From Candidatus Omnitrophota bacterium (GTDB lineage Bacteria; Omnitrophota; Gorgyraeia; Gorgyraeales; Gorgyraeaceae), in contig JAHIPS010000016.1 in assembly GCA_018902915.1 (NCBI GenBank), forward strand, positions 4,368 through 68,367: a stretch of 64,000 nt of DNA, given 5' to 3'. The position numbers and the translations under genes were made by a program. Positions within the stretch are counted from its first letter, which is position 1; each line of letters opens with the position of its first letter. The notes beneath the pieces are model-generated. The model was not told where the DNA came from. It worked only from the letters and a program-made list of their open reading frames with translations, and made no database searches. This document shows positions 3,291 to 43,372 of the stretch, piece after piece.

Positions 3291-6200
3291 TTATTCCACT
3301 GTCACGCTTTTCGCGAGATTCCTTGGCTGGTCCACATCGCAGCCCCTCTTGACTGCAATGTAATACGCTAAGAGCTGGAGCGGCAGGACGCTAGAAACAG
3401 GTGAAAACAGTTCATCTATTTTAGGAATATAAATAACATCCTTCGTGAAATGTTTTATCTCTGTATCGCCCTCGGTCGCGACTATGATCACCTTTCCTTT
3501 TCTCGCGCAAATCTCCTGTATATTGGAAACCATCTTATCGTATGTAAAAGAATCCGGCGCAATGCAGACAACTGCCCTGTATTCATCTATTAAAGCGATC
3601 GGCCCATGTTTCATCTCTCCAGCAGCATAGCCTTCGGCAGGGATATATGAGATCTCTTTTAATTTCAACGCGCCCTCAAGCGCTGTTGGAAAATTCAGGT
3701 TACGTCCCAGATACAGAAACGAACCAAAATGCGAATGTTTTTTTGCCAGCTTCTGGATCTCGTTTTTCTTTTTTAATATCACGTCCAATATCCTGGGCAA
3801 TTCCCTGAATTCTTTTATTAAAAATCTTTTAACCCTTTTTCTCAATGAACCCCTTTTCTCCGCAATATAAAATGCCAGTAAATATAGTATTGCCAGCTGA
3901 GCAGTATAGGCCTTTGTAGATGCCACGCCTATCTCTGGCCCGGCATAAGTATAAAGCACCCCGTCAGAGATCCTCACAAGGCTCGAGCCCACGACATTAC
4001 ATATAGACAGGATCCTCGCGCCTTTTTTCTTTGCCTCTTTTACGGCAGCGAGCGTATCCGCTGTCTCACCTGACTGGCTTATAGCTATTACAACAGTGTT
4101 CCCATTGACAATAGGGCTCCTGTATCTAAACTCTGACGAGAGATCCACCGTAACCGGGATATTCGCAAACTTCTCTATTAAATATTTTCCAACGCATCCC
4201 GCGTGATACGCGGTTCCGCAGGCCAATACTATGATATTTGATATATTTTTAATTTCCTTGTCCGAGAGATTTATACCGTCGAGCGATATCCCGCAAGCGC
4301 CTTTCAAACGCGAAGATATGATCTGTTTTAAAACCCTGGGCTGCTCGTGTATTTCCTTTAGCATAAAATGCGGGAATCCTGACTTTTGCGCGCTGGAGAC
4401 AGTCCACTTTATAGTGTCTATCTTTTTCCTCTTAACCTTCCCAGCTGAATCTAAAATCTTAACCTTGTCCTTTCTTAACGACACTACCTCGCCATCATCC
4501 AGGTATATTACCTTTTTCGTATACCTCAATATAGCCGGCACATCTGACGCAATAAAATTCTCGCCTCTCCCGACTCCGACGACGAGAGGGCTTTCCCTTC
4601 TCGCGCCAACCAGTTTATCCGGCTCATTAGAGGAAATAACGCCAAGCGCGAAGGAGCCCTTTAAATATTTAAGCGCTTTTAAAACCGCCTTTTCCAGATC
4701 CCCTCTATAATATTCCTCTATAAGATGCACCACTGTCTCTGTATCTGTCTCTGACTTAAACTTATGCCCTTTTCTAATGAGCTCTTCTTTTATCTCGTTA
4801 AAATTCTCTATGATCCCGTTATGCACCAGCGCGATGCCGCCTGAGCAATCTGTGTGAGGGTGCGCGTTTATATTTGTCGGAGTGCCATGGGTGGCCCATC
4901 TTGAATTATGAGAAATAAAACCGTTGGCTATAAAGTTAGAATCCGGATGATCCACTTCTAAATCAAAAAGAAATTTCTCTTCTGATTTAATTTTTTTAAT
5001 CTCTAAAATTGGCTGAAGCAAAATATTGGACTTTTTAAGTTTTTCATATTTGAGAGAAGATTTTCTTTTTAACAAAATATTCGATCGCTCTAATTTCTTT
5101 TTTGAGGAAAAGCCTATTTTTTTGGCAAAATTTTTAAAAGAATAGACGTTACTTATATGTAAAACATAACGATCATTCCAATTTTTTTCTTTCCGCTTCT
5201 CTTGATAGAGAAATGCCAGTATATTAAATCTTAGCAGAAACATCTGAACCATTTTAGCAATTCTTTCATCAGTAATAGCAAAACATATCTGTTGCCCTTT
5301 TAACCCTACATATCCTTCTGCATCAAAAATTCCTCTTAAAAAAGCGGCTATTTCATCTCTAGGAAGTTTGCCTATTTCACTTAAAAAATCTTCCTTCCGG
5401 GAAATTATATTTTTCTTTAACCACTGGCACAGGTAAAAGCTATTTGCTTCCAAAAGCCAGGCCCTAGTATCCTTCATAGAAACTATTCTTCCTTGAATCC
5501 CAAAGACCTCTGAAATTAAATCTTTATAAACAAATAAGAGATCTTTATCTAAATCTTTAAATCTTATTGTTCTCTTCTTTACTGTACCGTCTCCTAATAA
5601 ATAGCCAATTATTTGCATTAACTCAGGCGAGCTTTCTTTCGGCAAATTTATAAATTTCCCATGAATTGTATTTTGTGGGATAAAATAAGGTTCTTTAAAG
5701 CCGATGGACAAAGCAGGTAATAATTTTTGCAATTGATCTTCTCTGAAATTGCGGTCATTTCTTCTAATATGGTCCACATACCCTATGCTTATCCCGACCA
5801 AAGAAGAACAAGAGCTTTTGGTTAGTTGTAATTCTTTCAATCTATTCTTAATCAATAAATTTGCTTCTTCTGTAGCCTTAAAATATCTTTTAATAAAAAT
5901 TGACTCGAAATGCATCTTCTGTTCTTTAATTTCTATTGCCCGAGGAATAATCAATATATTTTTCTTATTAAGATTCTTGACTTTCTTTTCTATGATTCTG
6001 CCATCTGACATAACAAACATACGATGTTCACCTGTGCATTTTAGATAACCAAAAGAAGTTCTGATTTGATACAAAAATTCGGGCGAAGCATGGCATGCAA
6101 CTTCTAGTTGTGCAGATTCTAATTTGTTCGTCTTTAAATTGAAAGATAAAACATTGTCTCCTTTTTTTACTTTTGATATTGGGGTAATTCTGCCATCTGC

Positions 6201-6449
6201 TAATTGAACAAGCGTATCTTTTGACAAACAATGGCCTATGCCTAACCTGCTATCGTTTAAGTCGTTTCTCTCTTTTATAGCAAGAATTAAATCTTTGATC
6301 TTTCCTGAGCGTTTTGCAATCTTTATCTTATCATGGCTCAATATAGCTATGCCAGCTGAGTCATACCCGCGATACTCAAGCTGCTTCAGGCCGTCCAATA
6401 AAACCGGTAGCGCGTCCTTTTTACCTATATATCCCACTATCCCGCACAT
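3291..6449 (-). CDS. glmS: glutamine--fructose-6-phosphate aminotransferase, interrupted by an intein
   Basis: 1052 aa; MCGIVGY Ntn start, GIGH/[442-aa insert]/SRWATHG, two SIS domains, C-terminal DQPRNLAKSVTVE. 610 aa after removing the insert. Confidence 0.95.
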   Translation of the reverse strand: MCGIVGYIGKKDALPVLLDGLKQLEYRGYDSAGIAILSHDKIKIAKRSGKIKDLILAIKERNDLNDSRLGIGHCLSKDTLVQLADGRITPISKVKKGDNVLSFNLKTNKLESAQLEVACHASPEFLYQIRTSFGYLKCTGEHRMFVMSDGRIIEKKVKNLNKKNILIIPRAIEIKEQKMHFESIFIKRYFKATEEANLLIKNRLKELQLTKSSCSSLVGISIGYVDHIRRNDRNFREDQLQKLLPALSIGFKEPYFIPQNTIHGKFINLPKESSPELMQIIGYLLGDGTVKKRTIRFKDLDKDLLFVYKDLISEVFGIQGRIVSMKDTRAWLLEANSFYLCQWLKKNIISRKEDFLSEIGKLPRDEIAAFLRGIFDAEGYVGLKGQQICFAITDERIAKMVQMFLLRFNILAFLYQEKRKEKNWNDRYVLHISNVYSFKNFAKKIGFSSKKKLERSNILLKRKSSLKYEKLKKSNILLQPILEIKKIKSEEKFLFDLEVDHPDSNFIANGFISHNSRWATHGTPTNINAHPHTDCSGGIALVHNGIIENFNEIKEELIRKGHKFKSETDTETVVHLIEEYYRGDLEKAVLKALKYLKGSFALGVISSNEPDKLVGARRESPLVVGVGRGENFIASDVPAILRYTKKVIYLDDGEVVSLRKDKVKILDSAGKVKRKKIDTIKWTVSSAQKSGFPHFMLKEIHEQPRVLKQIISSRLKGACGISLDGINLSDKEIKNISNIIVLACGTAYHAGCVGKYLIEKFANIPVTVDLSSEFRYRSPIVNGNTVVIAISQSGETADTLAAVKEAKKKGARILSICNVVGSSLVRISDGVLYTYAGPEIGVASTKAYTAQLAILYLLAFYIAEKRGSLRKRVKRFLIKEFRELPRILDVILKKKNEIQKLAKKHSHFGSFLYLGRNLNFPTALEGALKLKEISYIPAEGYAAGEMKHGPIALIDEYRAVVCIAPDSFTYDKMVSNIQEICARKGKVIIVATEGDTEIKHFTKDVIYIPKIDELFSPVSSVLPLQLLAYYIAVKRGCDVDQPRNLAKSVTVE
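4905..6230 (-). mobile_element. GlmS intein with LAGLIDADG homing-endonuclease domain (442 aa)
   Basis: Begins CLSKDTLVQLADGR (Cys1 codon 6230-6228, preceded by His), ends FIANGFISHN (Asn codon 4907-4905) followed by Ser+1. Internal IIGYLLGDGTV and FLRGIFDAEGYV LAGLIDADG motifs. Splits the conserved GH-(T/S)RWATHG block. Confidence 0.9.
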
Positions 6450-7111
6450 AATTCCTCCGGAATGCCAATATCAGCTACTATAACCTCGCCAGTATATCTT
6501 GGACCCTCGCCTCTATAAAACCCGTTTTTTGCGATCTGCATTGTCACCGTCTTTGTCGCCTTTATTGCCTCGCCCAGCACTCTACCTGTATCTGCATCTA
6601 ATCCAGACGGCACATCAACTGAAATAACTGGAATAGATTTTGCATTTAAATCTTTAATTATAGTTCTTGCCGGCTCTTTAACCTCGCCCTTTAGCCCTAT
6701 ACCAAATATAGCATCTATAACCAGATCTACATCACCTCTCTCCCTAACCTTCTCCCCATCGCCTTCAGCGATGGGGAGAAGGAAGGGTGAGGGGATTATT
6801 TCAATGCCTATTTCCTGTAATCTCTCCAGATTAACCCTTGCATCACCTTTTATCCTCGCCATCTCGCCAACCACATATACTTCGACCTTAGTACCCTTCT
6901 TAGCTAGATACCTCGCAGCCACAAACCCGTCCCCACCATTATTGCCTGTGCCGCAGAATATTGCAACCTTTTTCCTAAATCCTGCCGCCTCAGCCACGCT
7001 TCTTCCGGCATTCTCCATAAGCACGATCGAAGGCATGCCAGCCTCCTCGATCGCCCTCCGGTCCATCTCCTGCATCTCGCGCACACTCATGCTCTTCACA
7101 GTGCCATACAT
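6437..7111 (-). CDS. nnrE: NAD(P)H-hydrate epimerase (YjeF N-terminal domain)
   Basis: MSVREMQEMDRRAIEEAGMPSIVLMENAG..IFCGTGNNGGDGFVAARYL..DLVIDAIFGIGL. Start moved to ATG 7111 (GGGAG SD); the track's longer N-terminus is hydrophobic read-through into the divergent promoter. Confidence 0.85.
   Translation of the reverse strand: MYGTVKSMSVREMQEMDRRAIEEAGMPSIVLMENAGRSVAEAAGFRKKVAIFCGTGNNGGDGFVAARYLAKKGTKVEVYVVGEMARIKGDARVNLERLQEIGIEIIPSPFLLPIAEGDGEKVRERGDVDLVIDAIFGIGLKGEVKEPARTIIKDLNAKSIPVISVDVPSGLDADTGRVLGEAIKATKTVTMQIAKNGFYRGEGPRYTGEVIVADIGIPEELCAG
6735..6794. repeat. 60-bp palindromic element, copy 1, in frame inside nnrE
   Basis: cctctctccctaaccttctccccatcgccttcagcgatggggagaaggaagggtgagggg. 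It is the reverse complement of copy 2 apart from a few substitutions. Read on the minus strand as PSPFLLPIAEGDGEKVRERG. Confidence 0.85.
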
Positions 7112-7163
7112 TATACCACTCCCAGCCCCGCCCTTCAACCTCCGCTTGCATAATAGACTGGAT

Positions 7164-9428
7164 ATGCTAAACTTATATGCGATGAATATTAAAAATAAAC
7201 TCAATATCAGCGCAATTATATTAGGCCTTACCTCAATGATAGGCCAGATAATTGTGATCCGCGAGCTCATCGTGGTATTTTACGGAAACGAGCTCTCGCT
7301 CGGAGCCATACTTGCCTCGTGGCTCTTCTGGACAGCAATCGGAAGCTCTGTATTCGGAAGACTGGTTGATAAAATCAGTTTTAAAACAACTCTTCTTGCC
7401 GCCATACAACTTGTCATCTCCATAATCCTTCCTTTAAACATATTATTAATACGCTATATTAAATCGCTTCTAAATATTTCAACTGGCGAGATAATCGGGC
7501 TCCAGCCCATGTTCATGGTTTCTTTTCTATCGCTGTCTTTGATATGCGTGCTGCTTGGCTTCACATTCACTCTTATATCAAAACTCGCTTCTGAAAATAG
7601 CTCCAGCTCGGCAGGATCAATAGGAAAAATATATTTACTGGAAGGGCTTGGCGCCTCAATGGGGGGCCTTTTATACAGCCTTTATCTAATAAAGGTCTTT
7701 TCCCAGTTTCATAATTCGCTCATTGTTTCATGTTTCAATATAATCATCTCCATCTTCTTCGCGAGAAATATAATCCAGCTTGTGCTTCTGGCAGCGCTCG
7801 GCGTAGCATTTATATTCAACTGGCCCCGTCATGTCGACGGATTTGTCAGATCCCTGCAGTTCAGGCCATTTAAGGTAGTGGAAAGCATCGATTCCATATA
7901 CGGAAATATCGCTGTAACAAAATCAGGCAATGACTACAGCTTCTATGAAAACGGGCTTTTGATGTTTACGACCAATGACTTTTTAACAAGCGAGGAATCT
8001 GTCCACTACGCGATGCTGGAGCATCCTGCGCCTAAAAAAGTGCTTCTTATAGGAGGCGGGGTAAGCGGCTCGCTCGAACAGATCCTGAAGCACGACGTGG
8101 ATAGAATAGACTATGTTGAGCTGGATCCTTTAATAATAGAACTCGCCCGCAAATATGTCCCTGTCCCTGCTGATAAAAAGATAAACTTCATCAACGCGGA
8201 CGGGCGGCTTTTTATAAAGTCAGCCCCCTCACCCTCCCTTCTCCCCATCGCCGAAGGCGATGGGGAGAAGGTTAGGGTGAGGGGTTACGACGTAATTATC
8301 GCAAACCTCCCGGACCCGTACACTGCCATGCTTAATCGTTTCTACTCGCTTGAATATTTCCGGGAGGCAAAGAAACTCCTGGCAGATGGAGGAATCCTTT
8401 CATTCTCGCTAAGCTCATCTGAGAATTATATAAACCCTGAAAACGCGGCTTACCTCGGGTGCATCTTTCATACGCTTGAAAAGGTATTCTCGGAAATAAA
8501 GCTGCTTCCGGGTGACAATGTCGTATTTCTGGCGTCAGATAAAAAGGACCTATTGACTCACGATACCGGCCTTTTGCTAAAAAGACTCGGCGACAGGAAA
8601 ATAAAAACCCAGTTTGTAAGAGAATACTACCTCCCGTTTAAGCTTTCGCCGCTCAGGATCAAATACGTGGAAAACACCTTAAAAGAATTCGGGGGCAGAA
8701 AGATCAACACTGATTTCAGGCCCATAGGGTATTTCTATCACATGCTTCTGTGGCTGACATTATTCAGCGCAGGCCGCGGGATCCTGCCGCACATAGGCAT
8801 ATTTAATATCTGGTTATTTATAGGGGTTGTAACAACGCTCTTTTTGATCATGTTTATGTTCCAGAAACTGCGAAGATCTTCTTTTAGGACGCCTGTCAGG
8901 ATATCCATCGGCGCTACCGGCATGAGCGAGATATGTTTTCAGATAATCGTTATACTGGCCTTCCAATTCCTGTACGGGTATGTATATTACAAGATAGGGC
9001 TTATCCTGACATCTTTCATGATAGGTCTTGTTTTGGGCAGCTTCTTTATAAACAGGCGGCTCGAGCGCATTCAGGATGAACGCTCGCTTTATCTAAAGAC
9101 CCAGGCCGCGATATGCCTCTACCCTCTGGTCCTTCCCCTGGCATTTAAAATACCTGATTTCCAGCTGGGTTTCGCGTTTCTTCCGATAATCGCCGGATTC
9201 TTAGGCGGGTTCCAATTCCCTCTTGCGAACAAAATCTGCCTCAAATCTTCATCTAATGTCGGGAAAACAACCGGCACTCTTTACGGTCTTGACCTCTTTG
9301 GCGCCTGTGTCGGTGGGTTATTGGTAGGTTTGCTACTCATCCCGCTACTCGGCATCACCCAGACCTGCTTAATCCTCTTTATCATAAACACTCTCGTATT
9401 AATACTACTTTTTTCCTCCAGTCGTTAA
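7164..9428 (+). CDS. spermidine-synthase-like (polyamine aminopropyltransferase family) polytopic membrane protein
   Basis: Start taken at ATG 7164 (or 7182); the track's 6771 start is antisense to nnrE. Multi-TM N- and C-terminal regions flank VLLIGGGVSGSLEQIL..VELDPLIIELARKY..YDVIIANLPDPYTAMLNRFYSLEYF..LADGGILSF. Confidence 0.75.
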   Translation: MLNLYAMNIKNKLNISAIILGLTSMIGQIIVIRELIVVFYGNELSLGAILASWLFWTAIGSSVFGRLVDKISFKTTLLAAIQLVISIILPLNILLIRYIKSLLNISTGEIIGLQPMFMVSFLSLSLICVLLGFTFTLISKLASENSSSSAGSIGKIYLLEGLGASMGGLLYSLYLIKVFSQFHNSLIVSCFNIIISIFFARNIIQLVLLAALGVAFIFNWPRHVDGFVRSLQFRPFKVVESIDSIYGNIAVTKSGNDYSFYENGLLMFTTNDFLTSEESVHYAMLEHPAPKKVLLIGGGVSGSLEQILKHDVDRIDYVELDPLIIELARKYVPVPADKKINFINADGRLFIKSAPSPSLLPIAEGDGEKVRVRGYDVIIANLPDPYTAMLNRFYSLEYFREAKKLLADGGILSFSLSSSENYINPENAAYLGCIFHTLEKVFSEIKLLPGDNVVFLASDKKDLLTHDTGLLLKRLGDRKIKTQFVREYYLPFKLSPLRIKYVENTLKEFGGRKINTDFRPIGYFYHMLLWLTLFSAGRGILPHIGIFNIWLFIGVVTTLFLIMFMFQKLRRSSFRTPVRISIGATGMSEICFQIIVILAFQFLYGYVYYKIGLILTSFMIGLVLGSFFINRRLERIQDERSLYLKTQAAICLYPLVLPLAFKIPDFQLGFAFLPIIAGFLGGFQFPLANKICLKSSSNVGKTTGTLYGLDLFGACVGGLLVGLLLIPLLGITQTCLILFIINTLVLILLFSSSR
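8225..8284. repeat. 60-bp palindromic element, copy 2, in frame inside the speE-like gene
   Basis: cccctcaccctcccttctccccatcgccgaaggcgatggggagaaggttagggtgagggg: 11-bp outer stem, 16-bp inner stem, GAA loop. Translated as PSPSLLPIAEGDGEKVRVRG between FIKSA and YDVII. Confidence 0.85.
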
Positions 9429-11203: not shown

Positions 11204-11218
11204 CCCTGCCTCCTTACA

Positions 11219-11270
11219 TTGTTCAAGGCTAAGCCTTGGACAGGCCTGTCCAAGGCTTAGCCTTGAACAA
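11219..11270. repeat. perfect 52-bp palindrome with nested 15-nt mini-hairpins
   Basis: ttgttcaaggctaagccttggacagg|cctgtccaaggcttagccttgaacaa. The arms are exact reverse complements with no spacer, and each arm contains CAAGGCT(A/T)AGCCTTG. Confidence 0.9.
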
Positions 11271-11283
11271 TAGAATAATGACC

Positions 11284-16504: not shown

Positions 16505-17115
16505 ATGTTACTACGCAGAAAGTAGGTGAGGCGTTCGAGTTCCATTGAGAGGTCTATGTTTAAGAGTTCAACGCCGCTAGGCACCTTGAGAGTTACAGGC
16601 GCGAAATTAAGGATGGCCTTAATGCCTGATGTAACCAGGTTGTCAACGACAGTTTGTGCTGATTCCTGCGATACTGCTAATATTGCCATGTCTATATGCC
16701 TTGAGCGTATAATAGATTTTAACTCTCTTGTGCTCCTTATTTTTATGCCCTGTTTTGTCTTTCCTATCTTTTTTATGTTATTGTCAAAGGCATATTTTAT
16801 GTTAAATCCCTGGCTTTTAAATCCTTTGTAGGCAAGGAGCGCTGAACCCAGGTTTCCGACGCCGACCAGCACTACATCCCAGTCCCTGTCTATACCCAGT
16901 ATCTTCTTTAACTCCAGCTTCAAGGTCTCAGTATCATAGCCTTTGCCAGGCCTGCCAAACTGGCCAAAATACGTGAGGTCTTTCCTGACCTGGGCAGCAT
17001 TACATTCTGTGAGATCAGCTAATTCCTGTGAAGAGATCACAGATGTGTCTTTTAATGATAGGAGAGCCCTGTAGTAAAGCGAGATCCTGGATATGCTGGA
17101 TGATGGGATTTTCAA
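16501..17115 (-). CDS. rex: redox-sensing transcriptional repressor Rex
   Basis: 204 aa; ISRISLYYRALLSL..SSQELA (wHTH) and VVLVGVGNLGSALLAY Rossmann NADH site. Confidence 0.9.
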   Translation of the reverse strand: MKIPSSSISRISLYYRALLSLKDTSVISSQELADLTECNAAQVRKDLTYFGQFGRPGKGYDTETLKLELKKILGIDRDWDVVLVGVGNLGSALLAYKGFKSQGFNIKYAFDNNIKKIGKTKQGIKIRSTRELKSIIRSRHIDMAILAVSQESAQTVVDNLVTSGIKAILNFAPVTLKVPSGVELLNIDLSMELERLTYFLRSNI

Positions 17116-28467: not shown

Positions 28468-28823
28468 CATTTTTTCTTCGAACTGACGTCCTCAACCAAC
28501 TTTTTAAATGCAGGCCTGTCATTAACTGCAATATCTGCGAGTATTTTTCTATTAAGCGTTATTTTTGAATCTCGCAGGGCCTTCATGAATTTACTATAAG
28601 ATATCCCGAGTTCCTTACAGGCATTGGAAATCCTCAAGATCCAGAGCTGCCTAAAATCTCTTTTCTTAACGCGCCTGTCCCGCGTGCTATAGGCCATGGC
28701 CTTGTTCACAGACTCCATTGTGATCCTGTGCCACTTGCTGCGGCCTGCGCGCTGGCCCTTTGCCATTTTAGAGACCTTTTTTCTGCGAGCCCTTGATGCT
28801 GGTCCATATTTTACTCGTGTCAT
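28467..28823 (-). CDS. rplT: 50S ribosomal protein L20
   Basis: MTRVKYGPASRARRKKV..QRAGRSK..QLWILRISNA. Confidence 0.97.
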   Translation of the reverse strand: MTRVKYGPASRARRKKVSKMAKGQRAGRSKWHRITMESVNKAMAYSTRDRRVKKRDFRQLWILRISNACKELGISYSKFMKALRDSKITLNRKILADIAVNDRPAFKKLVEDVSSKKK

Positions 28824-32727: not shown

Positions 32728-33390
32728 TTAACCTTCCTTCCTTAAATACCACAGCTCCTGGATTTTGTCAAGCAAAACCTGCGCTATGTATGACTTAGAT
32801 TCATTACTAATATATATGCTATTGCCCCTTGCGTCTATTATAGATACTCCTAACCTATTGTTACCAAATGGGTTATGTCGATTTGTCAGCCTATTGGCCA
32901 CTATCAGGTCTAATTTTTTGGGCCTTAATTTTTTCCTTGAATTTTTAACCAGGTCCTCTGTTTCTAAGCTAAATCCCACAAATAGCTTATCTCTTTTATG
33001 CTTGGCCAATTCTTTCAATATGTCCTTAGTTGGAACGAGTTTAAGCAGCAAACTCTCTTTTCTTTTTATCTTTCTCCTCGCAGCGCTCGCTACCCTAAAA
33101 TCCCCTACTGCAGCACACATCACCAGACAATCTGCTTTCTTAATCTCTTTCTTAAGCACTCTCAACAAATCATCCGCTGTTTCAATTGAAATGAACTTTT
33201 TAACCCTGGGAGGTTTTAGTTTGGTAGGTCCGCTTACGAGCGTAACAGCATGCCTCTTTCTCGACGCAACCTCTGCAACCTTATATCCCATGACCCCAGT
33301 GGATCTATTTGAAATAAACCTCACAGGATCGATCCGCTCTATTGTTGGCCCAGCAGTTACTATGATTTTAATGGCGCACCGCCCTTTCAA
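32728..33390 (-). CDS. coaB: phosphopantothenate--cysteine ligase (stand-alone CoaB)
   Basis: 220 aa; [44 protein letters not shown]. Confidence 0.88.
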
Positions 33391-34414
33391 TCATAAACTG
33401 CACGTTAGTATTGGCATTCAACGGGATAATTTTAACATCCGGGCAGTTCTGCTTCCACACCCTGAAAATCTCGTCTGCAAATCCCTGCCCTATAGTCTCT
33501 ACGCCATCGAAATCCAATATAATCGTTTTAAATTTACCCAAGCCGCTCAATATTCTCCTTGCCTGGGAACGCGAAACATACTCAGAACCTGGTTTGTAAA
33601 GCTTGACTTTTACCTCTGTCTTATTAAACTCGACTGATTCATCTGTATATTCCTTAAATACTGCACTCAATTCCCTTATCGAATCAATGCTGATAGAAAA
33701 GAAAACCTTTGTGCCAATAACATTCTTTCTAACGCCCTTGATAAAAATGTCATTTATAAGATTATCGAATATCAGTTTCTTTCGTGCGCCCTGCAATACC
33801 AGCTTATCCGCTACCTTTGATGTAAAAAAAATACCTTCCCCGCTATGAGATTCGGAAGCTGTTGTCAATTTGCCTTTCATGAGATCCTGTATTGCCTCCA
33901 TATCATCATTAAAGCCTTTCTTGCTTCTTATATTGTCAAAAATCCCTACGCCTTTATCTATTACCTCAAAACGTATGTGCCCTTTATCCCTTTCCATGGT
34001 TACTTCTATCATCTCCGAGCCCGAATGTTCAATCGCATTATTAAGCATCTCTGTAAACGCATAGGATACAATACGCGTGATGTTTTCAGGAAGCTCCATC
34101 AATACGCCTGTCTCGTTTTTTATTCTGTCCAGGACCAGATCTTCGGAAAGTTCTTTATTCTGCATAATGCGATGAATGCGCCTTATATCCTTTTTAGCCT
34201 GCATAAGCGCCTTTTTAGTCGCAGGGATATAACGGGCCCTGTTAGCTTTCCCTATTAATATAACCTTGCCTTGATCTTTCAACTTCTGAAAAAATCTATT
34301 TATATAGGCGCGTGAAAATCCTGTCTTTTCCACTATCTCAGAGGTCTTCACTTCGCCTTTTTCATCCAGCAACACGAGGATAAGTTTAGTTATAGAATCC
34401 ATAATACCCCACAC
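33368..34414 (-). CDS. wHTH + histidine-kinase-like ATPase + STAS-like (DUF4325-type) protein
   Basis: 348 aa; N-terminal wHTH (TSEIVEKTGFSRAYINRFFQKL), N-box FTEMLNNAIEHS, G1 DKGVGI, G2 SGEGIF, C-terminal ILDFDGVETIGQGFADEIF. Confidence 0.7.
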   Translation of the reverse strand: MWGIMDSITKLILVLLDEKGEVKTSEIVEKTGFSRAYINRFFQKLKDQGKVILIGKANRARYIPATKKALMQAKKDIRRIHRIMQNKELSEDLVLDRIKNETGVLMELPENITRIVSYAFTEMLNNAIEHSGSEMIEVTMERDKGHIRFEVIDKGVGIFDNIRSKKGFNDDMEAIQDLMKGKLTTASESHSGEGIFFTSKVADKLVLQGARKKLIFDNLINDIFIKGVRKNVIGTKVFFSISIDSIRELSAVFKEYTDESVEFNKTEVKVKLYKPGSEYVSRSQARRILSGLGKFKTIILDFDGVETIGQGFADEIFRVWKQNCPDVKIIPLNANTNVQFMIERAVRH

Positions 34415-34423
34415 CCTGCTTTA

Positions 34424-34537
34424 GTTTACAACTATAGTATATATTATAAAATGAAAGTTGTCAACAAGATGTTAATTCAGATATGGTTTATGACTTGTTT
34501 ACAACTTTAAAATTTAATATGCTCTAAAGTTGTAAAC
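34424..34537. promoter_or_regulatory. four GTTTACAACT-type half-sites as two inverted-repeat pairs (putative operators)
   Basis: gtttacaact 34424-33 / agttgtcaac 34456-65; TTGTTTACAACTTTA (34497-) / TAAAGTTGTAAACAA (-34537), a perfect 15-bp IR. Confidence 0.5.
34436..34464 (-). promoter_or_regulatory. promoter of the HTH-ATPase-STAS gene (TTGACA-17-TATACT)
   Basis: Minus strand: -35 TTGACA (34464-34459), 17-nt spacer, -10 TATACT (34441-34436). One half-site overlaps -35 and one overlaps the predicted TSS. Confidence 0.55.
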
Positions 34538-34589
34538 AACATCGGGCCGAAAGTCTGATGTGCCGATGAAGATATCGGATTGTAACCAA

Positions 34590-35132
34590 TTATTTTAAGA
34601 GCTTTTTTGCTTCTTTTATGATTATATCGATGTCCTGGATATGCCCCACGCCTTCACTGCCGCAGGCGAGCTTGCCTTTGATAGGACCGGTGAAGTGATA
34701 GTCGAGTTTTCTGAGTTTCTGGATATTTTGCTGCACGATTTTATTATTATACATCCCGGAATTCATTGCCGGAGCAAAAAGAACAGGTGCTTTTGTGGCG
34801 CAAATAGCGCATGTTAGTATGTCGTCGCATATGCCATTAGCAACTTTTCCAATAATGTTTGCTGTGGCTGGCGCAACCAGCACAAGATCTGCTTTTTCAG
34901 CTAAAGATATATGAGCGGCGTCCCACTCCTCAGGCAGCGCAAATAAATCCGATGTTACGACTTTGTTCCCGGATATCGCCTGGAAAAGAATCGGCCTTAT
35001 AAACTCCTCTGCCTCTTTTGTGAGAACTACTCCTGTAGACACACCGAGACGCTGAAGGCCCCGTATTATATCCAGGGCCTTGTAACACGCGATGCTACCC
35101 GTGACACCGACTATGATATATTTGGCTTTCAT
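34590..35132 (-). CDS. coaC: phosphopantothenoylcysteine decarboxylase flavoprotein (stand-alone CoaC)
   Basis: 180 aa; IIVGVTGSIACYKALD..VLTKEAEEFI..HISLAEKADLVLVAPATANIIGKVANGICDD..PAMN. Confidence 0.88.
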   Translation of the reverse strand: MKAKYIIVGVTGSIACYKALDIIRGLQRLGVSTGVVLTKEAEEFIRPILFQAISGNKVVTSDLFALPEEWDAAHISLAEKADLVLVAPATANIIGKVANGICDDILTCAICATKAPVLFAPAMNSGMYNNKIVQQNIQKLRKLDYHFTGPIKGKLACGSEGVGHIQDIDIIIKEAKKLLK

Positions 35133-36916: not shown

Positions 36917-37416
36917 GCCCAGACCCGTTTCTTTTGCGTTTCCATGCTAACAGTCTTTGTCGGATACAGATCCACGATTATCTCGTCTGGTTCAAACCAG
37001 AGTTTTATCTCGCGCTCTGCTTCTTTGGCATCTGAAGACGTGTGAAGCACGTTTTCATAGATGCCTTTTGTAGTGATCCTGCCAAAAGAACCTCTTATGC
37101 TCGTTACATCTGCTTCTTCTGGATTGGTCGAGCCAGCTAGCTCGCGGACCTTTGTTAGAGCGTCTTCGCCCCAGTAAACCATTGCCATGACCTTACGCCT
37201 GCCATGAAGCTCGCCCTGGATATATCTGATAAGCTCTTTAAAAAATGGCTTGTCTTCCATATGTTTATAGTGTTCTTCAGCAAGCTCTTTATTAACCCTG
37301 AGTATTTTAGCCGCAACTATTTCCAGCTTTGACTCTGAGAGACGCATAAGTATATTTCCTGTTAGCGACTTTACCAATCCATCTGGCTTAATCAAAACTA
37401 AGGTTTTCTGGTTCAT
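36913..37416 (-). CDS. ndk: nucleoside-diphosphate kinase (extended C-terminus)
   Basis: QKTLVLIKPDGL..HYKHMEDKPFF..TNPEEADVTSIRGSFG..NVLHTSSD (catalytic His). Confidence 0.8.
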   Translation of the reverse strand: MNQKTLVLIKPDGLVKSLTGNILMRLSESKLEIVAAKILRVNKELAEEHYKHMEDKPFFKELIRYIQGELHGRRKVMAMVYWGEDALTKVRELAGSTNPEEADVTSIRGSFGRITTKGIYENVLHTSSDAKEAEREIKLWFEPDEIIVDLYPTKTVSMETQKKRVWA

Positions 37417-37427
37417 GTCCTACCTCT

Positions 37428-38294
37428 TTAACTCTTTGATTTTAAACGAGTTATGACTTTTTCTAAATCCTTGTCCGAGTAAAATTCTATTTCTATTTTA
37501 CCGCCTTTTTTGCCTTTTAAAATCTTGACCTTTGTTCCCAATGCATAACTTAGCTCTTCTTCAATAGCCCTGAGATTAGGATCTTTATCTATCTTCTTTG
37601 TCTTTGTCCCACCTGAAAACTTTTTTGCGTATCTCTCTGTATCTCTTACAGATAGGTCATTTTTTATAACCCTGGTGCAGAGCCTGAGCTGTTCTGATTC
37701 TTTGTCAAGTCCCAGTATTGCCTTTGCATGGCCCATTGAGATTGTTCCACGTGAAACAAAGGCCTGGATCTTCTCAGGCAGTCTTAATAACCTGAGGATA
37801 TTTGCAATAGTTGCCCTGTCCTTACCAATAGTGGCTGAAATAGCCTCCTGAGTCATGCTAAACTCGTCTAAGAGCCTCTTAAATGCCTTTGCCTGGTCAA
37901 TTGGATTAAGGTCTTCTCTCTGCACATTCTCTATAATAGAAAGCTCTAATGAATCAATATCAGAAACATCCTTTACAATAGCTGGCACCTCGCTTAGCTT
38001 AAGCATCTTGGCAGCCATGAATCGCCTTTCCCCAGCTATTAACTCATATTCGTCCTGCTGGGGCCTGACAATAACTGGCTGTATAAAGCCTTTTTCCTTT
38101 ATAGAAGCAGCAAGATCATCCAGGGCCTGTTTATCAAAACCTCCCCTTGGCTGAAACTTATTAGCCTTGACCTTTTCAACAGGTATATTAGTGATTATCT
38201 GGCCCTTTCCAGCCTTTAACAATGCTGAATCTTCCCTTGAGCCCTTCTCAGGTATTAATGCTCCTAGACCCCTTCCGAGACCTCTTTTTTCCAT
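37428..38294 (-). CDS. parB: chromosome partitioning protein ParB/Spo0J
   Basis: GLGRGLGALI, IQPVIVRP..YELIAGERRFMAAK, HTH FSMTQEAISATIGKDRATIAN. Confidence 0.95.
   Translation of the reverse strand: MEKRGLGRGLGALIPEKGSREDSALLKAGKGQIITNIPVEKVKANKFQPRGGFDKQALDDLAASIKEKGFIQPVIVRPQQDEYELIAGERRFMAAKMLKLSEVPAIVKDVSDIDSLELSIIENVQREDLNPIDQAKAFKRLLDEFSMTQEAISATIGKDRATIANILRLLRLPEKIQAFVSRGTISMGHAKAILGLDKESEQLRLCTRVIKNDLSVRDTERYAKKFSGGTKTKKIDKDPNLRAIEEELSYALGTKVKILKGKKGGKIEIEFYSDKDLEKVITRLKSKS
37743..37758. promoter_or_regulatory. parS site inside parB
   Basis: tgttccacgtgaaaca, 15/16 to the consensus TGTTTCACGTGAAACA. Confidence 0.8.
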
Positions 38295-39073
38295 TCTTTC
38301 ACACCCTCCCCTGCTAACCCTCTTAAGAGCTCGCCTGCCAGAGCTTCATAGGTTTTGGCTCCTGTTGAATGTTTATCATATAGGTGTACTGGCCTTCCAA
38401 ACCCAGGTGCTTCGCTCAACCTTATGCTCCTGGGTATGATTGTCTTAAACACCTTTTCCTTAAAGAATTTCCTGGCCTCCGCTATTACTTCAGAAGTAAG
38501 ATTAGTCCTATAATCAGCCATTGTCAGAAGCACGCCTTCTATCTCTAGTTCAGCATTGAGATTGTCGCGCACAAGATTTATAGTGTTCAAAAGCTGGCTC
38601 AGGCCTTCCAACGCATAATATTCACACTGGATAGGTATCAACACTGAATCAGCTGCTGTTAGAGCATTGATTGTCAAAAGCCCTAATGACGGCGGCGAGT
38701 CAATAAGAATAAAATCATAATTACTGGTCAGGTCTTTTATGCTAGACTTGAGCTTATACTCCCGATTCATCATGCTGATTAATTCTATTTCAGCTCCTGT
38801 AAGATTTATGCTTGAAGGGATTAATTGAAACTCTGGCGTGTAAAGCTCCTGTATAATATCCTGGGCAAGGATTTTATTTACCAATACATCGTAGATATTA
38901 TGCTCGATCTTTGTCTTGTCAACCCCGAGCCCACTTGTCGCATTTGCCTGCGGATCAAAATCAATCAGCAAAACTCTCTTTTTTTTATGGGAAAGATAGT
39001 AGCCTAAATTAATGGCTGTGGTGGTTTTTCCAACCCCGCCTTTCTGATTACAGATTGCTATTACTTTTCCCAT
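38264..39073 (-). CDS. parA: chromosome partitioning ATPase ParA/Soj
   Basis: MGKVIAICNQKGGVGKTTTAINL deviant Walker A, LIDFDPQANAT, ILIDSPPSLG. Confidence 0.95.
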   Translation of the reverse strand: MGKVIAICNQKGGVGKTTTAINLGYYLSHKKKRVLLIDFDPQANATSGLGVDKTKIEHNIYDVLVNKILAQDIIQELYTPEFQLIPSSINLTGAEIELISMMNREYKLKSSIKDLTSNYDFILIDSPPSLGLLTINALTAADSVLIPIQCEYYALEGLSQLLNTINLVRDNLNAELEIEGVLLTMADYRTNLTSEVIAEARKFFKEKVFKTIIPRSIRLSEAPGFGRPVHLYDKHSTGAKTYEALAGELLRGLAGEGVKEWKKEVSEGV

Positions 39074-39076
39074 AAT

Positions 39077-39109
39077 AACCGTATCACAACCGTATCACAA
39101 CCGTATCAT
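39077..39109. repeat. three tandem 11-bp repeats immediately upstream of the parA start codon
   Basis: aaccgtatcac x2 + aaccgtatcat (minus strand TGATACGGTTG x3 then TT-ATG). The third unit contains the stop codon of the upstream Jag-N ORF. Confidence 0.85.
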
Positions 39110-39312
39110 TTTTTATGTAACTTCTTTATTACCTTGACTTTAGCTAACTTTGACCCTTGCATGCGAAAAAGGCCTTTGTTCTCTTCCCGCAACACCTTTA
39201 CATCAACTTCAGATTTAGTAGCGCCTAATTTTGACAGGGCGATTTTTATTGCTTCCTGGGCTGTCTTTGCTTCTACTTCTATCTCTTTTAAGACCTGTTT
39301 TTTAGGGCTCAT
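39106..39312 (-). CDS. Jag/KhpB N-terminal-domain-only protein
   Basis: 68 aa; IEVEAKTAQEAIKIALSKLGATKSEVDVKVLREENKGLF; no KH/R3H part. Canonical position after yidC. Confidence 0.7.
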   Translation of the reverse strand: MSPKKQVLKEIEVEAKTAQEAIKIALSKLGATKSEVDVKVLREENKGLFRMQGSKLAKVKVIKKLHKK

Positions 39313-40892
39313 GACTTTCTTAAGAAAAAGAACTGTAAAGAACTTGTAAGAACGGTATTAGTCAGCCAGTATAGGACCAGGCCTGACGGCAGACTGTAAA
39401 ATATAAACCCAAACATGACTGGCATTATAGTAGCCATCATCTTTTGCTGGTCTGTCTGGGCTGCAGTGGTCTTTGCCTGCGACAGCTTCTGTTGTACTAT
39501 CATAGCACCTATCATCAAGATTGGCAATAGATTTATTGCATTGCCTAAGAAAGGCATGGTAAATGGCAGATGAAACGCGGCATCTGGCATGGATAGGTCC
39601 TTTATCCACAGAAAATGCGCGCCCTTTAGCTCCACAGACCTCATGAGCGTCTGGTAGAGCGCGATAAATATCGGCATCTGTAAAAGCATCGGAAAACACC
39701 CGCCCATTGGATTTACATTATACCGTCGATAAAGTTCCATCATTTCCTTGTTTAATTTTTGCGGGTTGTCCTTGTGTTCCTGGCGCACCTTTTCAATGTG
39801 CGGTTGTATCTCCTGCATCCTTCTCATTGATTTCAGGCTCTTGAATGACAGCGGGAACAGTAAAAAGCTCACGCAGCATGTAAGTAAAAGTATCGCGACT
39901 CCATAATTATGAAAAAGGCCATAGAAAAATCTCAGGACGCTTAAGAGAACGAGTATTATGCTCGTTAGTCTCCCAAAATACAATGCCTTGCCAAATGACT
40001 GGTCTACATCTTCCAGCTCGCCTCTCTCTGTCGGACCTATATAGTAAAGAATGTCGTAAGATCTTGTCTCCCCAGGAATGATTCTTTCATCTTCAAGCAT
40101 AAAACCTGTAACAGGGGCGTTCTTAATATTTTTTGTAAAAATACCTACGGGTTTGAATTCAGGCTTGGCAATGATTGAATAATATTTATTTCTTAACGCG
40201 AGCCATTCGATATCGGAATGATATAACTTATTGTATTTCTTGGAATTACCGCTTGTTATCCTTTTTACTGTTCCATCTTTGGACAAAAGATCCACGCCCA
40301 CAAACCTTGCTTCGAATTTTTCCTTGCTGGCAATCTTTGAAGCAGCTGTAAGTTCGAATGATAAGTTTTTTGTTGAGGAGGAGAGATTTGTTATTTTGAT
40401 GCTTGAGCGCAGCGCATATTTATCCCTTAAAAATTTTACAGACTTTTCTATGCCAAGACCTTGTTTTTCAACATAGAGAGAGTTCGTATCCTCTCTGATT
40501 GCAAAGAGTTGCGACGACAAACCAGATAGCTCGCCGCTTCCCTCTATTGACAGCATACCCTGCTGGAACAGGGCGTTTTCCACAAGATCAATATCAAAAC
40601 GCTTGCCGTCCTTTATTTTGATTCTCTGAATGCTGCCGCCTATATTAGAAAAATCTATCTCGTATTTAGCATTGGCGAGCATAGTTGATATTGCGCCATC
40701 CGGCAGCACAGCCTCTTCGATTTCCTCAGGCTTGCTCTCGCGGCGCGTTTCTACAACTTCTTTTTTTTCAACGAATTGCATAGGCTGTTCCAGACCGCTG
40801 GAAGACGGCGGGTTTATTTTTTTAAGAAAAATCGGGTACACCAGCATCACGATTATCGATAATGCAACTGCAGCTAAAAGTCGTCTCTCCAT
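39309..40892 (-). CDS. yidC: membrane protein insertase YidC
   Basis: 527 aa; periplasmic P1 domain then NYGVAILLLT..KMQEIQP..GCFPMLLQMPIFIALY..PSGLVLYW. Confidence 0.95.
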   Translation of the reverse strand: MERRLLAAVALSIIVMLVYPIFLKKINPPSSSGLEQPMQFVEKKEVVETRRESKPEEIEEAVLPDGAISTMLANAKYEIDFSNIGGSIQRIKIKDGKRFDIDLVENALFQQGMLSIEGSGELSGLSSQLFAIREDTNSLYVEKQGLGIEKSVKFLRDKYALRSSIKITNLSSSTKNLSFELTAASKIASKEKFEARFVGVDLLSKDGTVKRITSGNSKKYNKLYHSDIEWLALRNKYYSIIAKPEFKPVGIFTKNIKNAPVTGFMLEDERIIPGETRSYDILYYIGPTERGELEDVDQSFGKALYFGRLTSIILVLLSVLRFFYGLFHNYGVAILLLTCCVSFLLFPLSFKSLKSMRRMQEIQPHIEKVRQEHKDNPQKLNKEMMELYRRYNVNPMGGCFPMLLQMPIFIALYQTLMRSVELKGAHFLWIKDLSMPDAAFHLPFTMPFLGNAINLLPILMIGAMIVQQKLSQAKTTAAQTDQQKMMATIMPVMFGFIFYSLPSGLVLYWLTNTVLTSSLQFFFLRKS

Positions 40893-40921
40893 ATCCTCTT
40901 CCTTAATCCGCCTCAGGCGGA

Positions 40922-41140
40922 TTATTTTTTATACGGATCAAAGCCGCCTGGAAACAATGGATTACATCGTAATATGCGGCCAACACCCTTGATTAATCCC
41001 AAAAACGCGCCCCTGTGATTAATTGCATCAAGCGTATATTGCGAGCACGAAGGATAATATCTGCATTTACATAACATAAATGACGATATATAGTTATGAT
41101 AAAATTTTATACTATTTTTTAACACGTTTTTTAAAAACAT
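40922..41140 (-). CDS. yidD: membrane protein insertion efficiency factor YidD
   Basis: 72 aa; IKFYHNYIS..CRYYPSCSQYTLDAI..GAFLG. Confidence 0.92.
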   Translation of the reverse strand: MFLKNVLKNSIKFYHNYISSFMLCKCRYYPSCSQYTLDAINHRGAFLGLIKGVGRILRCNPLFPGGFDPYKK

Positions 41141-41471
41141 ATGCCAATTCTTTTTGTATCTCGCTGGATTTTGTGTCTTTCTTAAGATTTGAACCCAGAA
41201 TCACAATGTCATGGCCAGCTGGTAGTAATCCTTTTGTCTTAACGTAGGCCTGCCTTAAGATCCTTCTGAATCTGTTGCGCAAAACAAGCTTTTTATTATA
41301 GAGGCTTTTTCTGACTACAAAAGCAGCCCTGTTTACACCAGAGGCATAGTCTCTTTTTAATAAAAATACCGTGATTAGCCTGGCTCTGAAGGGAGCGCCT
41401 TTGTCAAAAACCTTTTTTATCAAGGCGTTGTTCTTCAGGCGCTCGTTCCTGCTAAAGGAATTGCCTGTCAT
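41112..41471 (-). CDS. rnpA: ribonuclease P protein component
   Basis: 119 aa basic; RLKNNALIKKVF..VVRKSLYNKKLVLRNRFRRILRQAY. Confidence 0.9.
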   Translation of the reverse strand: MTGNSFSRNERLKNNALIKKVFDKGAPFRARLITVFLLKRDYASGVNRAAFVVRKSLYNKKLVLRNRFRRILRQAYVKTKGLLPAGHDIVILGSNLKKDTKSSEIQKELAYVFKKRVKK

Positions 41472-41608
41472 TAAACAGTGAGGCGTTTTTTGCCTTTTTG
41501 CCGTCGGCGCCTCAGTACAGCACGGCCCTTGGCAGTGCGCATCCTGTGCCTGAAGCCATGTTTACGTTTCCGTTTTAAAAGGCTCTTTCTGGTAAGATGT
41601 TTTTTCAC
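41471..41608 (-). CDS. rpmH: 50S ribosomal protein L34
   Basis: Below the ORF-track size cut-off. Own translation from GTG 41608 (GAGGAGG SD): [45 protein letters not shown]. Its stop overlaps the rnpA ATG. Confidence 0.93.
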
Positions 41609-41631
41609 TATAGCCTCCTCATAGGCGTTTT

Positions 41632-41659
41632 ATTATAACATATAACTCCATATCGTCAA
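41632..41659 (-). promoter_or_regulatory. rpmH promoter (TTGACG-16-TGtTATAAT)
   Basis: Minus strand: -35 TTGACG (41659-41654), -10 TATAAT (41637-41632) preceded by TGT. Confidence 0.6.
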
Positions 41660-41680
41660 GGGGAAAAATGTGTATTGCCC

Positions 41681-41832
41681 AAATCTTATCTGACAGAACG
41701 TACGTGCCCCGTTCCAAATTCTAATTGATACTCGATTTATTGTTTGTAGCTGATTGTGTACAATTCTGATAAACTATTTGTTAATATTTAAGAATTTGGA
41801 ACGGGGCGTGTCGGATTTGTCAGATAAGATTT
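41681..41832. repeat. 152-bp inverted-repeat cassette in the rpmH-dnaA spacer (candidate oriC/DUE element or MITE)
   Basis: 41-nt arms aaatcttatctgaca-N10-gccccgttccaaattc and their reverse complement (outer 15 bp and inner 16 bp perfect, middle 10 nt diverged), flanking ~70 bp of AT-rich DNA. Confidence 0.6.
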
Positions 41833-41835
41833 TGC

Positions 41836-41864
41836 TTGATATGAAAATACTTGGCTGTTATAAT
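41836..41864 (+). promoter_or_regulatory. dnaA promoter (TTGATA-17-TGtTATAAT), 10 nt from the ATG
   Basis: -35 41836-41841, -10 41859-41864, dnaA ATG at 41875, no SD in between. Confidence 0.55.
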
Positions 41865-41874
41865 ACTCTGACCT

Positions 41875-43209: not shown

Positions 43210-43372
43210 CAGTGTGAATAATTAGTATTTTTTTGTGGATTATTTTTGTTTCATAACTATAATTGAATAAGCGGGTTTTAAGGTTACTAACATACCAACA
43301 CCGTATTCTACTAATACTACTAATTTTTCAATTAGATATGGATAGTAAACAGTAAACACTTGGGGGATGTGG

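Follow-up and report, generated by a model that had tools for sequence, protein, structure and literature searches.

Palindromic elements related to the BoxC/PIT/TMECO repeats lie in frame in predicted surface loops of two adjacent housekeeping genes of a Candidatus Omnitrophota bacterium

The stretch of DNA analysed here (the window, 64 kb from a Candidatus Omnitrophota genome) contains two copies of a 60-nt palindromic element. They lie within the coding sequences of two neighbouring genes on opposite strands, which encode the epimerase NnrE and a membrane protein with a spermidine-synthase-like part (SpeE-like in what follows), and both are read in frame as part of the host protein. The coordinates are given in Table 1. 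An earlier reading made from the letters only (the sequence-only reading) had described two 60-bp copies with stems of 11 and 16 bp, which were reverse complements with a few substitutions and stood in frame in two unrelated genes on opposite strands. This description is correct: 56/60 positions agree between the copies, and the genes and reading frames are confirmed by translation and by Pfam.

Table 1. The two palindromic elements, their parts and their host genes in the window.
Feature	Position	Strand	Description
Host gene 1	6437..7111	-	nnrE, NAD(P)H-hydrate epimerase (YjeF_N), 224 aa; Pfam E = 2e-48
Host gene 2	7182..9428	+	fused MFS/spermidine-synthase-like membrane protein, 748 aa; Spermine_synth E = 3e-20
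Copy 1	6735..6794	-	reverse complement of the copy 2 element, 56/60 identical (57/60 in the sister strain)
Copy 1 inner hairpin	6748..6782		15-bp stem, 5-nt loop
Copy 2	8225..8284	+	60-nt nested palindrome, BoxC/triplex-motif (TM) family, palindromic double form; CCCCTCACCCTCCCTTCTCCCCATCGCCGAAGGCGATGGGGAGAAGGTTAGGGTGAGGGG
Copy 2 inner hairpin	8237..8271		CCTTCTCCCCATCGCC-GAA-GGCGATGGGGAGAAGG; C-block, expanded loop 1 (6-bp stem extension) and G-block 1
Copy 2 G-block 2	8274..8284	+	AGGGTGAGGGG, potential third strand, type-A 'TTA' loop directly before
Segment between the inverted copies	6795..8224		1430 nt; 5' parts of both host genes and divergent promoter region

A repeat search of the window returned the two copies as an inverted repeat of 61 nt (6734-6794 / 8225-8285), which is 93 % complementary. 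The four substitutions among the 60 positions are at element positions 12, 28, 54 and 58. Three of them disrupt stem pairs, all in copy 1, and the 27 stem base pairs of copy 2 are intact. The inner hairpin is formed by 16 bp in copy 2 (8237-8252 / 8256-8271) and by 15 bp in copy 1 (6748-6762 / 6768-6782). As a single strand, copy 2 is predicted to fold into stems of 11 and 16 bp with a dG of -56.8 kcal/mol (z = -9.3 against shuffled sequences); the predicted fold of copy 1 is weaker, at about -43.9 to -47 kcal/mol. The GC content of the elements is 62-67 %, compared with 42 % for the window. The 22-nt arm occurs twice in the window, where shuffled sequences give an expectation of 0.00, and no additional copy, full or partial, was found in the 64 kb.

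Both copies are present in the same arrangement in four further independent assemblies of a strain that is 99.5 % identical, which rules out an assembly artefact, and a strain-specific single-nucleotide polymorphism is located inside copy 1, at 6737. The elements are therefore real and fixed in the sampled population. Several other identities were considered and rejected. The inverted 60-nt repeats bracket both promoters, as in an invertible segment, yet only one orientation is seen in 5/5 assemblies. A terminator does not fit an element that lies inside open reading frames (ORFs) and has no T-run. A CRISPR repeat was likewise rejected. All Rfam matches, to models of eukaryotic miRNA precursors, fell below threshold (24-33 bits, with gathering thresholds of 72-230), and these were taken to be generic hairpin noise.

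Motifs of the BoxC/PIT/triplex type were first described in E. coli in the 1990s. BoxC, the PIT element and the 'TMECO' triplex motif are one and the same (Holder et al., 2015, NAR; PMC4666352), with a published pattern of CCCTCNCCC-N3-6-GGGNGAGGG-N3-GGGNGAGGG, and in vitro its single strand folds into a stable triplex. E. coli K-12 has 23 copies, which are described as intergenic in every case and sometimes arranged as inverted pairs, and 3,610 copies are counted across 262 proteobacterial genomes, with many more in cyanobacteria (PMC4666352). That survey found no function and no link to transposons but did find an association with local genomic instability, and no mechanism of spread is established (PMC4666352). 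It cites earlier work by Bachellier et al. and by Hoyne/Maher et al., and in the passages that it quotes from such work no promoter, terminator or polymerase effect of BoxC was found in E. coli in vivo (PMC4666352).

The window element is a variant of this family, neither a canonical member nor the founder of a new one. Its positions 37-60 (window 8261-8284) are identical at 24/24 nucleotides to copies in some E. coli genomes, and this identity, together with the block order and the type-A TTA loop, argues against a new family. When window positions 8225-8284 were compared by blastn with 5,426 E. coli genomes, there were matches in 5,400 of them, at a median of 11 places; the family consensus matches at a median of 34 places per genome. 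The window segment GGGGAGAAGGTTAGGGTGAGGGG is one base off the type-A rows of the published Table 1 (PMC4666352), and a relaxed form of the pattern, allowing one mismatch and a long loop, is matched on both strands of both copies.

The variant differs from the consensus in three ways. One stem position carries a compensated substitution, with CCTTCTCCCC/GGGGAGAAGG in place of the canonical CCCTCTCCCC/GGGGAGAGGG; loop 1 is widened into a 6-bp stem extension, ATCGCC-GAA-GGCGAT; and a second arm makes the whole 60-nt unit palindromic, so that the motif is present on both strands. The blocks are compatible with Watson-Crick pairing in 10/10 triads and with purine-motif triads in 9/10 (8/10 for copy 1 of the window strain), and triplex formation is a potential of the element only. 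The suggestion that it had evolved independently is contradicted by the block structure and by the 24-nt identity with a family found across phyla.

The arms of the element are common elsewhere. The form CCCCTCACCCT-N-CC(C/T)TCTCCCC is widespread among the listed matches in viral and metagenome collections, and those listed in viral contigs for CCCTCACCCT-NN-CCYTCTCCCC span 36-71 % GC. The arm with the CCTTCTCCCC variant is widespread in metagenomes, at 120 loci or more (at least 120). The ATCGCC-GAA-GGCGAT core was found in 0/120 of the listed metagenome loci with this arm, none of them from a close relative, and in no other SpeE-like orthologue examined. A search of the genome collection with the inner-stem signature, CTCCCCATCGC-N3-7-GCGATGGGGAG, gave no Omnitrophota loci among the matches listed. 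Those matches belong to an unrelated alphaproteobacterial repeat, which has only a short hairpin in common with the element and was set aside. This repeat (L128-L207; mostly Sphingomonadales, Reyranella and Caulobacterales) is an abundant hairpin, CCTCCCCATCGC-N3-7-GCGATGGGGAGG, which often adjoins a second hairpin, GGGGACCACC...GGTGGTCCCC. In one locus (L173) there are three copies of a BoxC-like version at a spacing of 278-279 nt.

Copy 1 is translated as PSPFLLPIAEGDGEKVRERG in NnrE, and copy 2 as (A)PSPSLLPIAEGDGEKVRVRG in the SpeE-like protein, in one register relative to the element. The shared register was noted in the sequence-only reading and the observation holds, but it carries little weight as evidence because stop codons close 4/6 frames: TAG and TGA fall in the TTAGGGTGA segment of copy 2 and TAA on the opposite strand, so that only gene-sense frame 2 and antisense frame 1 are stop-free. 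With 2/6 frames available, the shared register mostly reflects survivorship, at a chance of roughly one in two once survival of the host genes is taken as given, and does not speak for a register-aware mechanism.

AlphaFold models place both inserts in what are predicted to be disordered surface loops, directly before a conserved β-strand. In the NnrE model (mean predicted local distance difference test score, pLDDT, of 80) the sole internal segment below 50 is residues 109-124, which are unstructured and lie between strands 104-108 and 130-134 (DLVID). The model of the SpeE-like protein (mean pLDDT 85; residues are numbered as in the 754-aa AlphaFold model) also has a sole internal low-confidence segment (<50), residues 358-370, between helix 347-353 and strand 375-381 (YDVIIAN). 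Homologues have short loops here. T. maritima Nnr shows a 10-residue gap opposite the nnrE insert. Distant SpeE-like homologues (36-49 % identity) have a nearly uniform 5-residue loop at the insert site, and solved spermidine synthases have a 4-residue turn, GDGVKFIEENSG-FDVII. The last alignment was read by eye, as phmmer misplaced the fortuitous 'GDG' of the insert on the catalytic GDG. The models and the short loops of the homologues together bear out the idea that the inserts are tolerated as surface loops in front of conserved strands.

Among orthologues the length of the SpeE-like loop ranges from 27 to 56 residues. Other Omnitrophota orthologues have different long inserts, rich in Arg, Ser and Pro, in both loops, for example DYSSRLRSKNTNIVRASEASREPSG and RSPRPPRRTGFAQDGPFIQRKNSQRGH. 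They are found in P0155, P0158, P0178, P0212, P0156, P0149 and P0124 (SpeE-like) and in P0013, P0016 and P0007 (NnrE), and may come from other repeat families.

Almost all homologues of both host proteins are from Candidatus Omnitrophota, and alignment of the close orthologues shows that the insert is absent from them in both genes. The closest metagenome-assembled genome (MAG), GCA_964489855.1, has neither insert (SpeE-like P0122, NnrE P0003). Outside the loop, P0122 and the window protein agree at 94 % of positions; at the loop, P0122 has KENSENKT-YDVII and the window protein KSAPSPSLLPIAEGDGEKVRVRG-YDVII. In NnrE the window reads EIIPSPFLLPIAEGDGEKVRERG-DVDL, against EIDSPVEF-DADL in the nearest orthologues (75-84 % identity). 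In the DNA, 21 nt (GAAAACTCTGAAAATAAGACT) have been swapped for 66 nt in the SpeE-like gene, and 18 nt (GATTCGCCAGTCGAATTT) for about 63-66 nt in nnrE. The element is indeed 20 codons long, as had been stated, but it does not add 20: since it replaces an ancestral loop of 18-21 nt, the host genes end up about 15 codons longer than the nearest orthologues without an insert.

Across the SpeE-like gene the window is 91.5 % identical in DNA to the closest MAG (L001), and 92-96 % identical in the flanks of the insert; an identity scan against this MAG revealed no imported divergent tract around the SpeE-like insert. Neither window site shows a target-site duplication (compared with L001, and with L371 and L372), nor does the pair L002 and L373 described below. 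Given that so close a relative lacks both inserts, the comparison indicates that both are recent. The possibility that the 20 residues are an ancestral sequence is excluded, as neither the nearest relatives nor any of the distant homologues have them. Separately, nnrE is more diverged from the closest MAG beside the insert, at 6714-6921 (0.64-0.79 identity, against about 0.85-0.9 elsewhere). This may resemble the variability reported for the flanks of BoxC motifs in E. coli.

Related copies are found in other Omnitrophota. In 135 kb of non-redundant Omnitrophota DNA, which includes the window and its two copies, there are five intact copies of the family, all in frame and distributed over three genes, where 0 are expected by chance; intergenic intact copies number 0 in the same 135 kb. 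Two SpeE-like orthologues, P0151 (L002) and P0141 (L003), have related 48-nt palindromes, joined at exactly the same codons and read in the same register, and the strict TMECO pattern is matched at this site of L003. Other loci hold remnants. In L368 the left arm alone is left (GCC CCT TCG CCT, read APSP), which is exactly what a slippage deletion between two TAC repeats of an L002-like copy would give. L369 has a decayed copy in the SpeE-like loop, and L370 a decayed copy in another register, read PLTLPSP.

The nearest neighbours of these element-bearing proteins do without the element. P0166, which is 96 % identical to P0151, has a 5-residue loop, as does its whole subclade, and the 94 % relative of P0161 has a different loop. 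This pattern among neighbours at 94-96 % identity points to at least three independent recent gains in the SpeE-like loop and not to one ancient insertion. The pair L002 and L373 (95.5 % DNA identity) is a second clear case of a filled and an empty site, in which 15 nt (AACACGGGCTCTCTT) have been swapped for 54 nt and the flanking sequence agrees fully as far as the Lys and Tyr codons, for >40 nt on either side.

The third host is the interdomain linker of a Memo/AMMECR1 protein. In L373 (5968-6002) a copy that matches the strict pattern is read as IPSPQQGEGKGEGA, and in L002 (about 3690-3770, minus strand) the same copy contains a nested 36-nt insert and is still in frame (IPSPQQGKGKLAPYSNAVSSTGGEEAM). 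The nested insert has its own GC-rich hairpin, CCCCGTACT...AGTACGGGG, and may represent another type of small structured insertion in this group of genomes. Beyond the Omnitrophota most copies of the family look intergenic. A few copies in other phyla are in frame: one within the Radical_SAM domain of an enzyme resembling MiaB, one that separates DNA_pol_B segments, and those in a NirB-Rieske linker. In this last case, a nitrite reductase on metagenome contig Ga0114966_10000526 (L293), three BoxC-derived segments stand in the NIR_SIR–Rieske_2 linker (PSPPSSGERARVRG, PPHPHLLPPKAGGEG and PLTLALSPQSRGEG), in different registers, and the repeats form much of the interdomain linker.

Taken as a whole, these observations are probably best explained by variants of BoxC/PIT/TMECO having been written recently, and in frame, into two loops, where they are carried as passengers after copying that involved no transposase. 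The palindromes recently entered two adjacent, divergently transcribed housekeeping genes, and in each case a short surface loop of 6-7 codons has given way to one of about 21-22. They persist because the host gene reads one of the two stop-free frames and the peptide hangs out as a predicted disordered loop that leaves the fold intact. In the DNA sampled from these compact genomes, coding loops are the sole place where the family was found. As passengers they would be selfish elements, or a by-product of repair, and not functional segments of the protein.

Most likely one of the copies served as the template for the other, or both go back to an unseen master copy, at about the split from the GCA_964489855.1 lineage or after it. 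The copies are each other's closest known relatives, 1.4 kb apart and in opposite orientation, and the second may be a local copy of the first. All stem-breaking differences are in copy 1, and the common ancestor of the two therefore looked like copy 2. A search with the inserted peptide against 5.8 billion proteins gave five word-sharing candidate clusters, none of which scored.

The copying itself would be associated with replication or repair, for example template switching or short-patch conversion at microhomology, and not with a cut-and-paste transposase. This is favoured by the absence of a target-site duplication, the replacement of host nucleotides and the lack of a transposase nearby; among the about 45 ORFs of the window there is no transposase or recombinase. 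The ancestral Memo/AMMECR1 linker starts with ATCCCT and ends with GGGGGAGGCGATG, resembling the ends of the motif, and in nnrE the ancestral loop reads TCGCCA at the place of TCACCC in the arm. Such possible microhomology at the junctions is weakly suggestive of repair-type copying. After the copying, a strong selective filter would act, for an open frame and for a permissive loop.

Several points weigh against this explanation. The strict TMECO pattern has no match in the window, where the stem is GGGAGAAGG and loop 1, at 15-17 nt, exceeds the 3-6 nt of the pattern. In E. coli K-12 the copies are reported to be intergenic without exception, so that residence in coding sequence departs from the family as described (PMC4666352). 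On the 64 kb searched, the second element may be a local copy or the two may belong to a genome-wide family, and template switching is a mechanism that we infer. The junctions of the independent window and L002 insertions are nucleotide-identical (AAR TCN GCC CCC TCA ... GTG AGG GGN TAY GAY) although the replaced loops differ, which hints at site specificity or at cassette exchange and does not follow from the passenger model by itself.

Finally, the L002 and L003 elements are identical at 46/51 positions and at 15/17 third positions, in genes whose identity is 65 % overall and 41 % at third positions (P about 4e-5 overall and 8e-5 for third positions). By this comparison conservation of the element copies far exceeds that of synonymous sites in the host genes, and a purely passive, vertically inherited passenger would not show such an excess. 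Gains made recently and independently from one conserved pool of the family account for the similarity, and no local function is needed.

We also considered a bolder proposal, that BoxC repeats are no inert debris between genes but an actively propagating, transposase-independent class, whose structure drives their copying into preferred sites by replication or repair, and which in compact genomes such as those of Omnitrophota resides mainly in coding loops. This seems unlikely, although not negligibly so. If it were true, the repeated independent capture of one SpeE-like loop with identical junctions, the synonymous excess and the 24-nt identity with E. coli would point to copying directed at particular sites or to the nucleic-acid structure itself being under selection, and the filled and empty pairs at 91.5 % and 95.5 % identity would be natural snapshots of the mechanism.

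It is improbable that the structure is functional in place, with the hairpin or triplex kept by selection (as a translational pause, for mRNA stability, or as a replication or recombination signal) and the peptide incidental. The agreement of L002 and L003 at 15/17 third positions against 41 % gene-wide (P about 8e-5) would fit such a role, but local selection is not needed to make independent recent copies from a conserved family similar. The window substitution is compensated in the stem (CCTTCTCCCC/GGGGAGAAGG for CCCTCTCCCC/GGGGAGAGGG) and the predicted fold is very stable (-57 kcal/mol), yet copy 1 has picked up three changes that break stem pairs, one of which is specific to the strain. 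Several lineages have an element in this loop, but relatives that are 94-96 % identical do without the element, and sister copies have been decayed or deleted (L368 with the arm alone, L369 and L370 decayed, the L002 linker copy interrupted). In addition, the E. coli tests of earlier work, in the form in which they are quoted in PMC4666352, gave no promoter, terminator or polymerase effect in vivo.

The sequence-only reading had favoured an independently evolved family similar to the Rickettsia palindromic elements (RPEs), which would be organism-specific and multi-copy and would enter ORFs genome-wide. The palindromic, in-frame and loop-placed copies in two unrelated genes are what such a family would give, as are the recent gain relative to close relatives and the in-frame copies in a third gene of relatives. 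The independence is refuted, however, by the blocks and the up to 24 consecutive nucleotides that the element has in common with E. coli BoxC/TMECO and with thousands of environmental copies. The 64 kb hold two copies, the peptide has next to no counterpart among 5.8e9 proteins, and neither a target-site duplication nor a nearby transposase is present. We regard this family as decidedly improbable. What stands of the RPE analogy is the in-frame, surface-loop behaviour; the separate, independently evolved family does not.

A further alternative is that the SpeE-like copy is a loop cassette, imported by short-patch homologous recombination from another element-bearing member of the Omnitrophota, with the nnrE copy secondary to it. 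The nucleotide-identical junctions of the window and L002, in spite of different ancestral loops, could be read in this way, and conserved codons flank the loop. Foreign alleles have entered the region, as the neighbouring GlmS homing intein is absent from the closest MAG, and nnrE is more diverged next to the insert. There is, however, no divergent patch in the flanks (92-96 % identity of the window to L001; >40 nt identical on both sides in L002 and L373). The element-bearing orthologues are about 62-67 % identical in DNA, which is too low for efficient homologous exchange, and the ATCGCC-GAA-GGCGAT inner stem is not seen in other orthologues. Such an import is very unlikely. An ordinary ancestral loop or an assembly artefact, with no insertion at all, has next to no probability: both loops do vary in length across the family, but the nearest relatives and all distant homologues lack the insert, the GC content is 62-67 % against 42 %, the copies are 93 % identical in unrelated genes, and five independent assemblies agree.

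The window as a whole is core chromosome around the replication origin, with parAB, yidC, dnaA, dnaN, gyrB and gyrA. The origin region is at about 37400-44500, with parB, parA and yidC on the minus strand and dnaA (41875-43209) and dnaN (43367-44464) on the plus strand. At about 41-42 kb the genes change direction and the GC skew changes sign, and the two elements are about 34 kb away from the origin region. Three housekeeping genes within the 64 kb bear inteins (3291-6449 on the minus strand, 44798-48814 and 48817-53844 on the plus strand). GlmS has 1052 aa, with Intein_splicing and LAGLIDADG_3 domains, against about 610 aa in relatives; its intein is absent from the closest MAG, and the adjoining exteins are unusually diverged (0.51-0.59 identity). 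GyrB (1338 aa) has an intein at about residues 542-1039, and GyrA (1675 aa) has two Intein_splicing and three LAGLIDADG_3 stretches.

A perfect 54-nt palindrome, ATTGTTCAAGGCTAAGCCTTGGACAGGCCTGTCCAAGGCTTAGCCTTGAACAAT, lies between two minus-strand genes at 11218-11271. It is unrelated to the BoxC-type sequence, and its core, CAGGCCTG, recurs in smaller palindromes at 16947-16959 and 28504-28525. CoaBC is usually encoded by one fused gene. Here (32728-35132, minus strand) the CoaB-like gene (DFP, 32728-33390) and the CoaC-like gene (Flavoprotein, 34590-35132) have between them an ORF of 348 aa with HATPase_c_2 and DUF4325 (STAS-like) domains, at 33368-34414. An ORF of 1814 aa on the plus strand (54542-59986) combines a SAM-dependent methyltransferase, a B12-binding domain and two radical-SAM stretches, and is followed by lexA (60306-60977) and then by a gene for a Dam-like N6-adenine methyltransferase (60989-62188).

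Comparison with described systems places the window element closest to BoxC/PIT/TMECO. It has the same block order (C-block, loop, G-block, 3-nt loop, G-block) and the type A form GGGGAGA(G/A)GG-TTA-GGGTGAGGGG, and like them it is a GC-rich island in AT-richer DNA. The palindromic configuration is also found in E. coli. In both cases there is no target-site duplication and no associated transposase, and both show local instability, with small deletions that leave a hairpin-capable remnant. Unlike BoxC in E. coli K-12, which is reported to be always intergenic, the window element is inside coding sequence and is translated. Its loop 1 is 15-17 nt long and base-paired, giving the 16-bp inner stem, and it has the compensated stem substitution and one mismatched triad. 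Whereas the E. coli pairs consist of two motifs roughly 15-100 nt apart, here a perfect two-sided palindrome forms one 60-nt unit, and the host phylum, Omnitrophota, is outside the published survey (PMC4666352).

Repeats of the REP/BIME type are mobilised by RAYT transposases, which are IS200/IS605-like, and have a GTAG/CGTC head. The window element resembles these repeats and MITEs in being short, structured, non-autonomous and repeated, and in that in-frame fusions are occasionally created. It has no GTAG/CGTC head, as its ends are CCCC.../...GGGG, and no RAYT (Y1 transposase) or insertion sequence gene is present among the about 45 window ORFs. MITEs have terminal inverted repeats flanked by a target-site duplication; in contrast, here there are none, and 15-21 nt of host DNA have been replaced.

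The RPEs (Ogata et al., 2000, 2002) are described, in the sections of PMC10969869 that concern them, as Rickettsia-specific families of about 100-150 bp, with tens of copies per genome. To the extent of that account, the window element is similar to them in being palindromic, in frame in unrelated housekeeping genes, read as a surface peptide compatible with fold and function, and without coding capacity for its own mobility. On the same account it differs in being 48-60 nt long and in belonging to a cross-phylum family, and this size and BoxC membership set it apart. Two copies of the variant are seen in 64 kb.

In the literature searched we found no report of in-frame coding copies of the BoxC/PIT/TMECO family. 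The class of element and the RPE-like phenomenon were both already known, and what is new is that the two occur together, that one loop has been colonised repeatedly, and that there are clean pairs of filled and empty sites. Together these make the question of how BoxC-type repeats spread more tractable. The pairs exhibit replacement of a loop without target-site duplication, which constrains the copying mechanism. The repeated colonisation of a single loop bears on how protein loops lengthen. For annotation, the element explains Pro/Gly/Arg-rich low-complexity inserts with GC-rich codes in metagenome proteins (PSP...GE.VRVRG, PLTL...GEG). In behaviour the window element matches the RPEs, and by membership it is a variant of BoxC/PIT/TMECO. 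The host range of BoxC is thereby extended to a distant uncultured phylum, and its lifestyle to that of the Rickettsia RPEs.

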